From Candidatus Magasanikiibacteriota bacterium (GTDB lineage: Bacteria; Patescibacteriota; Patescibacteriia; Magasanikbacterales; GWA2-37-8), in assembly GCA_016182085.1 (NCBI GenBank), contig JACOYB010000004.1, positions 275,923 to 339,922 of the forward strand: a stretch of 64,000 nucleotides of DNA, in the 5' to 3' direction. This document shows, in pieces, positions 23,459-26,881 of this stretch; the first letter of the stretch is position 1, and each line of letters begins with the position of its first letter. The position numbers and the translations under genes were made by a program. The notes under the pieces were generated by a model that was not told the origin of the DNA, searched no databases, and saw nothing but the letters and a program-made list of their open reading frames with translations.

Positions 23459-23642
23459 GAAGTTTTGTTAAGTAATTTTTCGATACTATTGCCTAATTGT
23501 TGAAGGTTAAGTAAATCTCATAGACTCTCAAATTTCGTATTTCCATGGAGCCCTTGCCTTTGACAAAGTATTCGTTTTTGCTAATATTGAAATGGTTTTC
23601 GCAATGTTTGCGTTTGCCAAAAACACCAAACATGGAGGGGTT

Positions 23643-25748
23643 ATGCGTTCGCATCAGGATATTCGTCGTATTCTCGCGGAGCGCATTCTTGCCCTCCTTG
23701 AGATCAGTGCAAAACTGCCGCAACCGTTTCGGCCCTATCAGTATCAGGCCATGTCAAACATGGTTGATTGGCTGAAGGACAGTTCCGGAACCAAGCGTGG
23801 TTATGTGGAACACGCGACCGGTTTGGGTAAAACAGTGCTATTTGCGTCTCTGGCCGCTGTCTGCCATGGACTGCGTATCTTGATTGTTGAGCCGAGCAAG
23901 GTGCTCGTGGAACAAACAATTCATCGCGTTGCGCAGTACAGCGGTGGTCCGGTGGGCTACATTGCTTCGGTGGAAGATATTCGCAATGACGAAGGTCAAC
24001 TGATTGGTCGCCGAGGGTATGAAGGTGTCAGCGTTGTAGTTACCACAGATGAGAGTCTGTGCGCCTATGCAGCCGAACTTGCGCTCCGGTACCAGCCCGA
24101 TGTTGTGGTATTTGATGAGTGCCACTGGGGCTATCTCAGTAATACTGATGCGGCTCTGGCTCATTTTTCCGAAGCTGTCATCATCGGCTTCTCGGCCACT
24201 GCCAACTACCTCACTCCTGTGTGCTCGCAGTCCTCGGTTCCGTTTGGTCTAGAAAACCAACGCGAGCTTTATGGTCTGCCTCATCGGATGGCAAGCCAAT
24301 ATTTCGGTACCCTTATTGATCGGCGCACGCTGATCTGGGGAATCCAAAATGGCTGGCTTGCTCCGCTAGCTTGGGATTCGTTTGAGACTAACTTGTCTCT
24401 TGGAAATATTGTCATCCAGGAAGGGGATTGCGGCCTGGACTATCACATGGCTGCTATCACCAATTTTCTTGGCGGCAACTGGATGGCCATAACTCGAATG
24501 GTCTGTGACTTGTACGCAAGTGGCAAATACGATCTAGCTAAGCGGCAGGTGTTTGCAGTGTGTCCGGGTGTTAGAGAAGCAGAAGAACTTGCCGCTGCCA
24601 TCAACCTTTTGGGAGTGTCATCAGCATGTGTGGTCGGCAAAACCAGCGGCAAGGATCGTCGGGCTGCAATTAGTGCTCATAAGACCAAAGGTGTACGACT
24701 CTTAACTTCAGTGGGTGTCCTCCGTGAAGGTTGGGACGGTGAGGCAGAGGTTTGTCTGAATCTTCGTCTTACGATTTCGCAAGTGCGATATGAGCAAACG
24801 CTTGGTCGTATCCTGCGTCCTCGTCAGAATAAGGTCAGCCTGATGCTTGATGCTAACTTTCAGACCTTCAATGGCCTGCAGCCGCTGACCGCATCGTATC
24901 TTTATGGCCAGATCAACTCAGGTGTTATACCGGGTGACATCCTGGTAAATACACAAGAAGGTGCTGCGGGTGTAATCCGATCGCCAAGCCTCTCGCCTTA
25001 TCTGGTTTCTGACAAACAGCAGCCGAAACCTAAGACCGTTGAGGTTAAGATGGACACCGACCACATAGTGTTGCACTTGCTGTTTAGACTCCTGTGCGAA
25101 CATTTGGTAGAGAGACCGGGCGATAGACAGTATATCAAGGTGCCGATCACCTTGTTGCAGAACCGATGTGGACAAGATCGAAAGACAGCCGAACAATTCT
25201 TGGAAAAGATGTGTGAAGCTGGTTTCATTGGAGGGCAGCCTCCATGGGATATCGTTTGGCCAATGGTTAAGATTGATCATACGGTTCAGGAAAGCAGGCG
25301 TGGCGGCAACAGATCGCGCAGCAATCAAATGGTACGTAGGTCACTCAGTGTTCACCACACGAGTGTAGACTACTACCGCACGCTCCGAGAGAGAAGCTTC
25401 GACGTTACTGGCTCGGCCATTGTACACGCGCCGCAACTGATTCTGGAAGACGTGTATGCCTTGAGCAAAGATCTCGCTATTGCAGTGCTAGAGACACTTG
25501 CAGCAAGCGGCGCTATCGAACAAGTCCAAGATTGGACAGTGGTCAAAATCAATGAAGTGCTAGAGAAGCGTTCGGTCAAGCGTAAGAAGCAAAAAAGAAG
25601 GCGAAAACGAACGAGGCCAGCGATTCAGCCACGATCGATCCCTGATGATCTGGGCGTCATTTTGCAGGATTTAAAGTTAAAGTTCCTGCAAATGTTCTGG
25701 CGTTTGGTTGAAAATAGTTTTGAGGAGCATCTGAGGAGGAAAAAATAA
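23643..25748 (+). CDS. superfamily-2 DEAD/DEAH-box (DECH) helicase, type-III-restriction-res-like
   Basis: Start set at ATG 23643, which is preceded by GGAGGGG. Motif I ATGLGKT, motif II VVFDECHW, motif III FSATAN, plus helicase C-domain blocks (…LTSVGVLREGWD…QTLGRILRP…). A basic KRKKQKRRRKRTRP tail follows. Confidence 0.8.
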   Translation: MRSHQDIRRILAERILALLEISAKLPQPFRPYQYQAMSNMVDWLKDSSGTKRGYVEHATGLGKTVLFASLAAVCHGLRILIVEPSKVLVEQTIHRVAQYSGGPVGYIASVEDIRNDEGQLIGRRGYEGVSVVVTTDESLCAYAAELALRYQPDVVVFDECHWGYLSNTDAALAHFSEAVIIGFSATANYLTPVCSQSSVPFGLENQRELYGLPHRMASQYFGTLIDRRTLIWGIQNGWLAPLAWDSFETNLSLGNIVIQEGDCGLDYHMAAITNFLGGNWMAITRMVCDLYASGKYDLAKRQVFAVCPGVREAEELAAAINLLGVSSACVVGKTSGKDRRAAISAHKTKGVRLLTSVGVLREGWDGEAEVCLNLRLTISQVRYEQTLGRILRPRQNKVSLMLDANFQTFNGLQPLTASYLYGQINSGVIPGDILVNTQEGAAGVIRSPSLSPYLVSDKQQPKPKTVEVKMDTDHIVLHLLFRLLCEHLVERPGDRQYIKVPITLLQNRCGQDRKTAEQFLEKMCEAGFIGGQPPWDIVWPMVKIDHTVQESRRGGNRSRSNQMVRRSLSVHHTSVDYYRTLRERSFDVTGSAIVHAPQLILEDVYALSKDLAIAVLETLAASGAIEQVQDWTVVKINEVLEKRSVKRKKQKRRRKRTRPAIQPRSIPDDLGVILQDLKLKFLQMFWRLVENSFEEHLRRKK

Positions 25749-25850
25749 AAAGGGTAATGATTTCTTACGGAAAGGAGAAGTCTCAACCATTACCCCGTTG
25801 TCCTTTGAAAAGCATTTTGTTTTTCAAAGGATGCCGATTTTGTAACAGGG

Positions 25851-25879
25851 TTGACAAAAGTGGTTTTTTGTGCTATATT
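25851..25879 (+). promoter_or_regulatory. sigma70-like promoter TTGACA-17-TATATT, AT-rich, upstream of the GC-rich ORF
   Basis: ttgacaaaagtggttttttgtgctatatt, followed by the hairpin gttactttttaagtaac. The track ORF at 25851 starts on the TTG of the -35 box and is probably an artefact. Confidence 0.45.
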
Positions 25880-26051
25880 TATTTGTTACTTTTTAAGTAA
25901 CTATTTCTTTACAATTCAAAGAACGCGCGGGGTTTTTCTCTGTTTTCAGTGTCTAAATTTTGGATGCTTAAAACAGGGAGAAATCCCATATTACACCTGG
26001 CGTCCTTATCTGGGATTGCCGCCTTTGTTCCATCACCGTAGAGGTGCTTCA

Positions 26052-26702
26052 ATGGAAACGTCACAACCGATCGATCAGACCAAGAAGTTCTCCGTCCCGG
26101 CCCGCCGTTCGGGCCAGAATCTCGTTGCGCCGTACGCGGGTGCCTACATCCGGTTCGGCGATGCGTTGTACCGCGTCAACCCGTTCACTCGTGAGGTTCA
26201 CAATCTTACGGGTTCGGACGACGCGGACCAGATCCTGGACAAGGATGGCTGTCACTGGATGCCCGGCATCCCGCGCTGGGCCCGTCGGCTCCTCCGTCTG
26301 CGGGCGTCCATTGTCGCCCGGCCGAACCCGATCAAGCGTCAGATGATCCCGATCATCACCGACGTCTCCGGTATCACGCCGATCTCGCCGCCGGCTACCA
26401 AGACCGTGTCGCGCGAGCCGGCGAAGGTGCTGTGGCAGAACGTGGGCGGACGGCTCATCGTCCTGGTGTTTTTGGAGGACAACAATCCCCAGAAGACCAA
26501 CGTCTTCCACGTGAACAACACCGACAACAAGGTCATCCGCAAGGATGGCTCCTCAGCCCAACTCCGAACCATGGAGGAACTCTTGGCCCGCAAGTGGCAG
26601 AAGGGCAACCTCGGCGAGGCCCGCTTCGCCCCGATCCACAGCTTCCTGGTGGGCGAGGCAGCTGCGGACTTCCTGGTGAGCGAGGCGTGTTTGTCCGCCT
26701 AG
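26052..26702 (+). CDS. hypothetical protein, 62% GC (foreign codon usage)
   Basis: Start moved to ATG 26052 (METSQPIDQ…). Strong GC3 bias. No recognised motif. Confidence 0.5.
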   Translation: METSQPIDQTKKFSVPARRSGQNLVAPYAGAYIRFGDALYRVNPFTREVHNLTGSDDADQILDKDGCHWMPGIPRWARRLLRLRASIVARPNPIKRQMIPIITDVSGITPISPPATKTVSREPAKVLWQNVGGRLIVLVFLEDNNPQKTNVFHVNNTDNKVIRKDGSSAQLRTMEELLARKWQKGNLGEARFAPIHSFLVGEAAADFLVSEACLSA

Positions 26703-26745
26703 AAACAGGTGGCCAGCAAGCAGTAGGCGCGCTCGTTGAACAACC

Positions 26746-26809
26746 GTTCTTCAGAGTTATGCGCTTCTTGCGCCAAAAATAATTTGGCCCTAGAAGCGCT
26801 CTGAAGAAC
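26746..26809. repeat. inverted repeat at the right edge of the GC-rich island
   Basis: gttcttcagag (26746-26756) and ctctgaagaac (26799-26809), with the inner pair gcgcttct/agaagcgc. Confidence 0.5.
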
Positions 26810-26881
26810 TCCCCGTTTAAAAAACCTTATACAATCGTATGAGGTTTTTTTAATTCCTAGCGAGCCCGCAGGCAAGTATTT

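Follow-up and report, generated by a model that had tools for sequence, protein, structure and literature searches.

The question raised by this locus is why a genome of low GC content should carry, side by side, two genes that are so much richer in GC than the DNA around them. The window, that is, the whole stretch of 64,000 nt of contig JACOYB010000004.1 that was analysed, comes from a Candidatus Magasanikbacteria genome (Candidate Phyla Radiation, CPR, or Patescibacteria) of about 41% GC, and its background GC lies between 0.35 and 0.45. The two genes are a superfamily 2 (SF2) helicase gene and, downstream of it, a small open reading frame (ORF), and the initial annotation took them for one GC-rich foreign island beginning at 23470. 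The rise in GC is real, but it starts near 23600 and forms two blocks: a 200-nt scan gives 0.50 to 0.56 over 23600-25600, only 0.335 to 0.345 over the gap at 25700-25999, and 0.59 to 0.655 over 26000-26800, after which the value is about 0.40 again. Both GC-high blocks coincide with ORFs, the helicase at 23643-25748 and the small ORF at 26052-26702. The answer towards which we lean, with modest confidence, is that these are two independent single-gene units: a CPR helicase that was imported long ago (unit 1, 23560-25840), and a cassette that is inherited whole, keeps an inverted codon usage and would give rise to a stable, gated mRNA (unit 2, 25841-26855).

The GC content of the small ORF is 0.628, with 0.60, 0.44 and 0.84 at the first, second and third codon positions (GC1, GC2 and GC3), and that of the helicase ORF is 0.506 (0.60, 0.41 and 0.51), while the native genes have a GC3 of 0.26 to 0.48. 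Among the window ORFs of at least 100 amino acids (aa), a codon-periodic excess of GC3 is found in these two alone; a GC3 above 0.5 also occurs in three other ORF calls (30279-30662, 31136-31531 and 54237-54689), two of which belong to another GC-rich region, at 30.3-31.5 kb.

Codon usage of the small-gene family

The small gene (26052-26702, + strand, 216 aa) is fast-evolving and rich in G/C-ending codons. It had been described as an orphan, and a word-indexed protein search did return only the protein itself and its copy in L001, a contig of the sister genome GCA_964619625.1, which is about 96% identical. An exhaustive phmmer search against 1.84 billion representatives, however, recovered ten more proteins, distant relatives with 24 to 37% identity, nine of which are 193 to 252 aa long. 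DNA was obtained for seven of them, and four genome loci were found through the 3′ motif described below, giving 10 distinct loci with ORFs of 193 to 287 aa. Every member with DNA has a gene GC of 56 to 65% and a GC3 of 0.66 to 0.96 (at least 0.84 in nine of the ten), with third positions holding 1 to 5% A and 3 to 12% T (A3 and T3), whereas the flanks have 36 to 45% GC (two flanks shorter than 60 nt excepted) and the whole 8-kb loci 39 to 42%. The choice among synonymous codons is thus turned around with respect to the genome: AAG is used in 99% of cases versus 22%, GAG in 92% versus 21%, ATC in 98% versus 19% and TTC in 97% versus 14%. The amino-acid composition, by contrast, is near native, with 0.25 versus 0.22 for G, A, R and P (GARP), 0.26 versus 0.32 for F, Y, M, I, N and K (FYMINK) and 0.55 versus 0.67 for K/(K+R), and so this does not look like a protein from a high-GC proteome.

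It could be thought that such a bias reflects translational optimisation for high expression, but the ribosomal-protein gene rplU in locus L016, a genome of the same type, has a GC3 of 0.265, which makes the G/C-ending codons the non-preferred class and led us to reject that explanation. The most telling comparison is between loci L012 and L014, where the cassette is found at the same site, oriented divergently to a gene for a XerC-type recombinase. The two XerC proteins are 94% identical, with a synonymous divergence (dS) of about 3.5 and a third-position identity of 0.52, that is, saturation; the cassette proteins are 39% identical, and their GC3 values are still 0.93 and 0.96. Since third positions under neutral evolution would, over this divergence, have come to match the rest of the genome, the composition must have been maintained. 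The cassette also lies in varied contexts: L011 and L015 have a NAGPA gene upstream of it, in L016 it is flanked by rplU and recR, and the helicase or a copper operon is upstream in the window and L001; together with the saturated xerC divergence, this indicates that the cassette family is old within its lineage. On the evidence of these sequences, the usage of G/C-ending codons is an actively maintained trait of the family and not the footprint of a donor. A recent import from a high-GC donor, and the actinobacterial origin suggested earlier for the small gene, do not agree with members that sit in DNA of 36 to 45% GC, use amino acids as low-GC proteomes do and keep a high GC3 family-wide, undecayed across synonymous saturation.

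Other origins were considered for so unusual a gene and set aside. Adenine mutagenesis of the kind driven by diversity-generating retroelements would not deplete both A and T at third positions, as is seen here, and dS is not elevated. Selection for an overlapping antisense ORF was rejected because the in-register antisense frame is open merely through the avoidance of A-ending codons and is interrupted in the window. An Obelisk- or viroid-like small replicon was considered since the distant homologues all lie on contigs of 0.8 to 2 kb, but these lack terminal repeats, a cellular gene (NAGPA, in L011) flanks one of them, full copies are found inside contigs of 13 to 474 kb, and one short contig (L010) has a coverage of only 2.6x. 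The tblastn searches of phage and plasmid sequences with the small protein returned nothing, the 3′ motif is absent from IMG/VR, and the 91 viral matches to a 16-mer of the leader are due to chance, none of them having the rest of the leader. Pattern scans of metagenomes likewise found nothing, and literature searches did not find a description of such a cassette, which is previously undescribed. It may be added that the records of L012, L013, L014 and L016 are labelled "uncultured Gammaproteobacteria" or "Candidatus Udaeobacter"; they are likely mislabelled or mis-binned, as both the genes they contain and the cassette they share suggest CPR of the Magasanikbacteria type.

Architecture of the cassette

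All members share, around the ORF, a promoter of the form TTGACAAAA-N-TTTTTnTGnTATAnT, an AT-rich leader of about 165 nt, a ribosome-binding site, a stretch that is complementary to the leader, a hairpin on the 3′ side and a terminator. In the window, where all of these elements lie on the + strand and occur in single copy as far as the untranslated regions (UTRs) are concerned, the promoter (TTGACAAAA...TTTTTnTGnTATAnT, 25851-25879) is the TTGACA-17-TATATT site that had been recognised at the outset; it is preceded by an upstream TG and scores 11/12 against the consensus. The proposal that a foreign gene was captured behind this resident promoter fails, because promoter, leader and 3′ hairpin accompany every member of the family in different contexts. 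The leader is predicted to fold into three hairpins. P1 (25885-25901, GTTAC-loop-GTAAC) stands where the transcript is predicted to begin and has 5 pairs, 100% paired across the alignment, with 2 compensatory; P2 (25930-25987) is a long stem of 22 pairs (95.5% paired, 6 compensatory); and P3 (25999-26020) has 9 pairs (97.8% paired, 3 compensatory). Between P1 and P2 lies a conserved single-stranded block, TTTCTTTACAATTCAAAGA (25904-25928), and after P3 comes the ribosome-binding site AGAGGTG (26040-26046), which is AGGAG in most relatives. RNAalifold, run on 10 sequences, recovers the three hairpins with 96.7% of cells paired, and 11 of the 36 leader pairs are compensatory, compared with 3.7 ± 1.3 in shuffled alignments (0 of 500 as many) and 2 to 4 in slid controls.

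Downstream of the ORF lies a near-invariant hairpin at 26746-26809, in which the 11-bp inverted repeat (26746-26756 and 26799-26809) and the nested 8-bp pair (26761-26768 and 26792-26799) noticed earlier are both present; its consensus is TTCTCCAGAG-n3-GCGCTTCT-loop-AGAAGCGCTCTGGAGAA, and a compensatory change from C-G to U-A can be read from the sequences of the window and L001 lineage. It is followed by an intrinsic terminator hairpin (26816-26853) with flanking A and T runs, which is shared with the convergent gene and whose stem varies in sequence among relatives yet stays complementary, as judged by eye from the alignment and not counted. The 23 to 47 nt immediately after the stop codon are GC-rich (0.52 to 0.70) in nine of the ten members; in L005 this segment is only 6 nt long and AT-rich. 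Overall, the median identity of the UTRs is 66 to 72%, as against a median protein identity of 36%.

The two ends of the transcript are predicted to pair with each other. The strands of this closing helix are 25915-25928, within the conserved single-stranded block, and 26727-26740 (GCGCGCTCGTTGAA), as indicated by the minimum free energy (MFE) structure and the pair probabilities of the full transcript. More generally, the leader sequence ...TTCAAAGAG and an extension pair with an extension and CTCTTTGA... in the 3′ UTR, and this helix is part of the MFE structure in all 8 of the 8 full predicted transcripts (890 to 1198 nt), with 10 to 21 bp and a mean pair probability of 0.79 to 0.95 in seven members. 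The extensions are specific to each lineage yet complementary, for instance CGCGC/GCGCG in the window, GTT/AAC in L005 and UUUGC/GCACAG in L008; a longer pairing in L005, GUUUAUAG/CUAUAAC, appears only when the isolated segments are folded as a duplex.

These elements do not correspond to a catalogued RNA: Rfam gave no match at the gathering score and, at E ≤ 10, nothing but fortuitous hairpin matches whose scores are well under the cut-offs. An integron cassette was also considered, but the hairpin ends 5′-GTTCTTC...GAAGAAC-3′ have the wrong polarity and sequence for an attC site, R''(RYYYAAC)...R'(GTTRRRY), the cassette has its own promoter, there is no IntI, and the XerC-type recombinase of L012 and L014 is absent at the other loci.

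The small ORF appears to encode a real folded protein, as suggested by the rise in AlphaFold2 confidence (pLDDT) from 34.9 without an alignment to 72.9 with one of 11 sequences. The model has two confident domains (residues 12-87 and 122-205) with a variable, disordered linker between them and a C-terminal helix, and the alignment contains conserved W/S/L/W/F columns. Pfam, NCBIfam, PADLOC and PHROG had no match, the best Foldseek hits were not significant (E of 0.024 in the PDB and 0.025 in BFVD, TM score below 0.25) and the sole PDB sequence match is a motif of about 30 residues resembling a beta-propeller blade. The proteins end in Ala-Ala in 11 of 14 distinct cases, and the stop codon is TAG in 9 of 11 and TAA in none. 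This C-terminus resembles the SsrA-type recognition end for ClpXP, an analogy by which the protein might be turned over rapidly.

Independence of the two genes

The sister genome allows the two genes to be separated. Identity between the window and L001 is 91 to 97% across most of the aligned neighbourhood and 94 to 97% over the helicase and cassette units, but the modules next to them differ. Directly 3′ of a tRNA gene the window has a DsrE-like gene (23132-23458, +, Pfam DsrE), a variable module in whose place L001 carries a major facilitator superfamily (MFS) transporter (8625-9917 of that contig); homology is absent between 23065 and 23560 and resumes exactly at 23560. Furthermore, L001 contains a 4.2-kb copper-resistance operon of native GC (12199-16394), encoding a CsoR-like repressor, a P-type ATPase (CopA), HMA-DsbD_2 and a cupredoxin, which is inserted exactly at window position 25840/25841, between the helicase terminator and the cassette promoter, with no evident repeats at the junction. 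The blocks of homology start exactly at the −35 hexamer of each gene (23560 and about 25841), and these modular differences mean that each of the two GC-rich genes forms a module of its own, from promoter to terminator, within a region that varies. The helicase and the small gene are independent transcription units and not one island. A functional link between them was also rejected: tblastn found no helicase near the cassette at any of seven cassette-bearing loci screened, and the helicase of locus L017 is adjoined by an unrelated GC-rich ORF.

Nor does the region behave as a genomic island integrated at a tRNA gene. As the initial annotation had already noted, there is no integrase ORF in 23065-26880; the 23 nt at the 3′ end of the tRNA occur only once when up to 3 mismatches are allowed, leaving no att-like repeat, and no flanking direct repeats were found. 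A chimeric assembly can be excluded, since the same architecture is present in 10 independent assemblies.

The helicase

The helicase unit has its own promoter (23560-23587, +), TTGACA-16-TAATAT with an upstream TG, and the relative in L017, which is 68% identical, is preceded by a similar promoter and leader. The gene itself (23643-25748, +) encodes 701 aa with a ResIII/DEAD core of the DExH type, a Helicase_C domain and a C-terminal third that has no assignment, and it is followed by a terminator-like hairpin (25799-25833, +) just upstream of the indel point at 25840/25841. The features described for it earlier are all there, namely the GGAGGGG sequence before the ATG at 23643, the motifs HATGLGKT, FDECHW and FSATAN in the translation, and the basic tail KRKKQKRRRKR. 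It belongs to SF2, with Pfam matches to ResIII (6.4e-21), DEAD (2.5e-11) and Helicase_C (1.9e-6) that are all above the cut-offs, and it matches the phage DNA helicase family phrog_16 at 1.6e-44.

Its assignment to the defence or restriction-associated helicases found no support. The PADLOC matches are partial and confined to the N-terminal ATPase core (1.6e-13 for PbeA, covering residues 29-188, and 1e-6 for REase_I), with no full-length match to a defence model, and no nuclease, methylase or other defence partner lies beside the gene, its neighbours being DsrE or MFS on one side and the cassette or the copper operon on the other. The match to RadD (YejH) is weak: the score against NF053632 is 56.5 bits where the cut-off is 720, and covers the ATPase core only, and the PDB match to RadD (6jde) has an E of 3.4e-5 over about 95 residues. 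What the window helicase has in common with RadD and the phrog_16 helicases is motifs I (GLGKT), II (DECH) and III (SAT) and the RecA2 domain; it differs from RadD in its unrelated C-terminal third, which ends in the basic tail, and in the setting of its family, which adjoins sigma-70 in CPR genomes and not RadD or a defence context.

The 35 homologues that we found are 38 to 68% identical over the N-terminal two-thirds (one further match has 24%), and their source names are Magasanikbacteria, Uhrbacteria, Patescibacteria or unclassified "bacterium", most being without a name. In L002, L018, L019 and L020, the gene lies 3′ of a sigma-70 gene, with or without an intervening 449-aa ORF, which two of these four genomes have as a fusion with the sigma factor, and further neighbours are housekeeping genes such as FtsA/FtsZ, RNase III and CorA. 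The GC of these four loci is 53 to 58%, and that of the helicase is within 0 to 5 points of it. In the window, L001 and L017, which represent the low-GC lineages, the helicase sits elsewhere and has a GC of 0.51 to 0.56 versus 0.34 to 0.42 in the flanks. Its ratio of nonsynonymous to synonymous substitution (dN/dS) against L001 is 0.19, indicating that the gene is under purifying selection. Most simply, then, the window helicase may plausibly be seen as an old import, within the CPR, from a relative of intermediate GC (53 to 58%). The idea of foreign acquisition is in this sense partly upheld, as the region 3′ of the tRNA is variable and an import of the helicase is plausible, but the donor would be a CPR relative and not an unrelated organism.

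Two side observations concern this gene. The neighbourhood (RNase III)-sigma-70-(449-aa ORF)-helicase in mid-GC genomes of the Magasanikbacteria and Uhrbacteria type hints at a role linked to transcription. The unrelated ORF next to the L017 helicase (968-1603, 211 aa, GC about 0.62) lies directly upstream of it, between flanks of 34 to 42% GC, and has its own AT-rich promoter, a leader of about 170 nt and no Pfam match; small codon-deviant genes may thus be a recurrent class in these genomes.

Weighing the explanations

According to the reading that we prefer, the cassette transcript would be unusually stable and gated after transcription. Its 5′-terminal hairpin, the closure between its 5′ and 3′ ends, the 3′ hairpin with the terminator and a body that is rich in GC and offers few single-stranded sites rich in A/U could all contribute to stability, while the encoded protein, which evolves fast, would be unstable and tightly controlled. 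Several points weigh against this picture. The ends, half-life and translation of the transcript are all predicted. The closing helix of L016 amounts to 6 weak pairs, and the core of the helix is invariant, so that covariation comes solely from the lineage-specific extensions, with bulge positions that differ by lineage. Sequestration of the Shine–Dalgarno sequence is not consistently predicted. Shuffles of synonymous codons reveal only a weak excess of structure within the ORF (z from +0.25 to −2.9), which suggests that selection acts on composition rather than on any particular fold, and the stability of an mRNA does not obviously require a GC3 as extreme as 0.95. The copy in the window and L001 looks to be under relaxed constraint, with a dN/dS of 0.56 between the two and a GC3 of 0.84 to 0.86; a near-perfect 18-nt direct repeat at 26642-26686 (CTTCCTGGTGGGCGAGGC and CTTCCTGGTGAGCGAGGC, 27 nt apart) duplicates FLVGEA/FLVSEA at its C-terminus, and both proteins end in -LSA, the duplication having apparently replaced the usual Ala-Ala. 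As for the helicase, its GC excess is kept in both the window and L017, whose proteins are 68% identical, and it may be a native copy that was relocated and not imported.

Among the alternatives, one that we regard as possible but unlikely places the control at the level of codons. With A-ending codons at about 1 to 2%, the ORF would be read only by tRNAs with G or C at position 34 (G34 or C34), and these rare isoacceptors would throttle its translation; or else translation would be possible precisely when tRNAs with U at that position (U34) are cleaved, unmodified or depleted, as under stress or attack by an anticodon nuclease, a mirror image of the logic of bldA-like or modification-tunable transcripts. 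Such gating would account for a bias that is confined to synonymous positions and leaves the usage of amino acids native, for the low A3 and T3 in a genome where G/C-ending codons are the rare class, as rplU attests, and the window contains at least one gene for a C34 tRNA (Pro-CGG). Yet the untranslated 23 to 47 nt after the stop codon are GC-rich too in nine of the ten members, which speaks against a purely tRNA-based cause, the asymmetry of A3 below T3 is also seen in ordinary high-GC genomes, and no nuclease or tRNA gene is linked to the cassette. Defences that target tRNAs and codon-dependent requirements for tRNA modification are documented as concepts (PMC10264068; 10.64898/2026.09.09.750475). 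A bolder version, which we find very doubtful, holds that the synonymous sites are kept at a GC3 of about 0.9 to 0.96 because the message is meant to be read in circumstances, or inside a cell, in which A/U-ending codons cannot be decoded. The product would then be a fail-safe protein, translatable when U34 tRNAs have been destroyed or left unmodified; most radically, the RNA or its product would be tuned to the GC-rich host cell of a CPR episymbiont, and the closed, nuclease-resistant architecture of the mRNA would be part of that design.

A different kind of explanation, which strikes us as quite improbable, makes the cassette a recombination hot spot, whose UTRs serve as homology arms for the exchange of alleles (for example, by natural transformation) and where heteroduplex DNA undergoes GC-biased gene conversion, raising both the GC content and the rate of protein evolution, by analogy with the inflation of GC3 in eukaryotic recombination hot spots. 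The UTRs of L008 and L012, which share the same context, are 81 to 88% identical when the proteins are 36% identical, all three codon positions are enriched in GC, as is the segment after the stop codon, and the boundaries of the GC-rich segment are sharp. An association between recombination and GC3 in bacteria has been reported (PMC4450053) and would support this view. Under conversion strong enough to give a GC3 of 0.95, however, it would be unexpected for the amino acids of a weakly constrained protein to be barely shifted (GARP 0.25 versus 0.22, with abundant Lys); moreover, dS between the window and L001 is not raised relative to the neighbours (0.10 versus 0.09 to 0.17), and variable, apparently unconstrained loop positions in P1 and P2 remain AT-rich. 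To our knowledge, the magnitude of conversion needed would far exceed anything reported for bacteria.

Highly improbable, in our judgement, is the recent arrival at the tRNA of a foreign island from high-GC donors of the actinobacterial type, with the small gene captured behind a resident promoter and now ameliorating. The jump in GC and the actinobacterial-like GC3 suggested it, as did the adjoining tRNA gene with variable gene content nearby; the relaxed copy of the small gene in the window would fit with it, and the helicase may truly be an import. Against this, the homologues of the small gene among the 1.84 billion representatives lie only in low-GC contexts, the phage and plasmid searches were negative, promoter and leader are conserved together with the ORF at 10 loci in at least four different genomic positions, and GC3 has stayed at 0.93 to 0.96 where the neighbouring dS is about 3.5. 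The amino-acid composition is that of a low-GC proteome, neither an integrase nor an att repeat is present, and DNA of native GC separates the two genes in L001. Least credible of all is that the GC-rich segment is a structured non-coding RNA with an incidental ORF. GC-rich intergenic regions in AT-rich genomes are often structured non-coding RNAs, this segment is flanked by conserved structured elements, and its antisense frames are open too; but all members show a three-base periodicity in a single frame (GC1, GC2 and GC3 of about 0.55, 0.41 and 0.94), the W/S/L/W/F protein columns, the ribosome-binding site and the ATG are conserved, AlphaFold2 confidence rises from 35 to 73 with the alignment, Rfam has no match, and the ORF is no better structured than its synonymous shuffles.

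Genomic surroundings

The tRNA gene upstream of the helicase is a tRNA-Asn(GTT) (22454-23065, +) with exons at 22454-22487 and 23027-23065 and, in the anticodon loop, a group I intron (22488-23026, 539 nt; 73.9 bits for Rfam Intron_gpI), whose presence had been correctly predicted. The intron contains an ORF resembling an HNH homing endonuclease (22505-22831), with a sub-threshold Pfam HNH match (19.4 bits against the gathering cut-off of 21.4, E 0.0012). In L001, the position corresponding to 22487 is joined directly to 23027, and ARAGORN, which misses the intron-split tRNA of the window, calls an intronless tRNA-Asn(GTT) there; such an allele at 96% identity implies that the intron was gained or lost recently.

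Some further observations were made elsewhere in the window. The K/E-rich ORF at 20205-22388 (727 aa) has a DNA identity of 69% with its L001 counterpart over 20598-22487 while its neighbours have 91 to 97%, and is thus a second fast-evolving gene adjoining the region. At 12899-12988 (−), ARAGORN calls a tRNA-Ser with the unusual anticodon ACT, confirmed as a tRNA by Rfam (54.5 bits). A sub-threshold match to the AdoCbl riboswitch is found at 30803-30886 (−; 36.1 bits, where the gathering score is 50; E 1.4e-4), and near it the segment 31136-31531, with a GC of 0.61 and no codon periodicity (GC1, GC2 and GC3 of 0.67, 0.54 and 0.61), could represent a structured RNA missed by Rfam.

Comparison with known systems

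If the reading that we prefer is right, the helicase is the lesser result, since it amounts to refiling a "defence helicase" as a CPR-wide SF2 helicase linked to sigma-70. The cassette would matter more. It adds a new structured leader, a new 3′ element and a predicted closure of the 5′ end with the 3′ end to the Candidate Phyla Radiation, in which gene regulation is almost unexplored. GC- and codon-deviant bacterial genes are routinely read as recent horizontal transfers, and here is a deviant gene that is demonstrably not one, which bears both on the detection of horizontal transfer and on the theory of codon usage. Behind it must stand very strong selection, acting on synonymous sites or on the composition of the mRNA, or else a local GC-biased conversion without precedent in bacteria; for selection, the odds ratio between a GC3 of 0.95 and one of 0.40 gives an estimated 2Ns of roughly 3 per site.

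The nearest relatives of the locus as a whole might seem to be tRNA-linked genomic islands, with which it shares a deviation in GC next to a tRNA gene and neighbouring modules that are present or absent among close relatives; it differs from them in having no integrase or att repeat. From acquired genes of deviant GC, the small gene is set apart by its vertical conservation with its own UTRs and by a composition that is not ameliorating.

As regards the transcript, the closest parallels are the mRNAs of type I toxins. In the full-length mRNAs of aapA1 from Helicobacter pylori and hok from plasmid R1, long-distance pairing of the 5′ end with the 3′ end explains both their stability and their poor translation until the 3′ end is processed (PMC5416894). 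The cassette resembles these systems as a stand-alone small unit with a highly structured mRNA for which pairing of the 5′ UTR with the 3′ end is, by prediction only, also found. Nevertheless, it is not a type I toxin-antitoxin system, as its product is a predicted soluble two-domain protein of about 200 aa (193 to 287 aa in the family) and not a small hydrophobic membrane peptide of fewer than 60 aa. The closed loop would span about 0.75 to 1.05 kb and not about 0.2 kb, consistent sequestration of the Shine–Dalgarno sequence is not predicted, and type I loci have no inverted codon usage. A consensus scan of 25841-26860 found no promoter-like site on the minus strand from which an antisense antitoxin could be transcribed.

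As regards codon usage, the comparison that comes to mind is with codon-tuned transcripts, such as those governed by bldA and TTA codons in Streptomyces or those tunable by tRNA modification, where a gene is likewise set apart by codons that are rare in its genome. Transcripts of that kind use one or a few rare codons. The cassette, for which no dedicated tRNA was identified, inverts every codon class, over the whole ORF and throughout the whole family.

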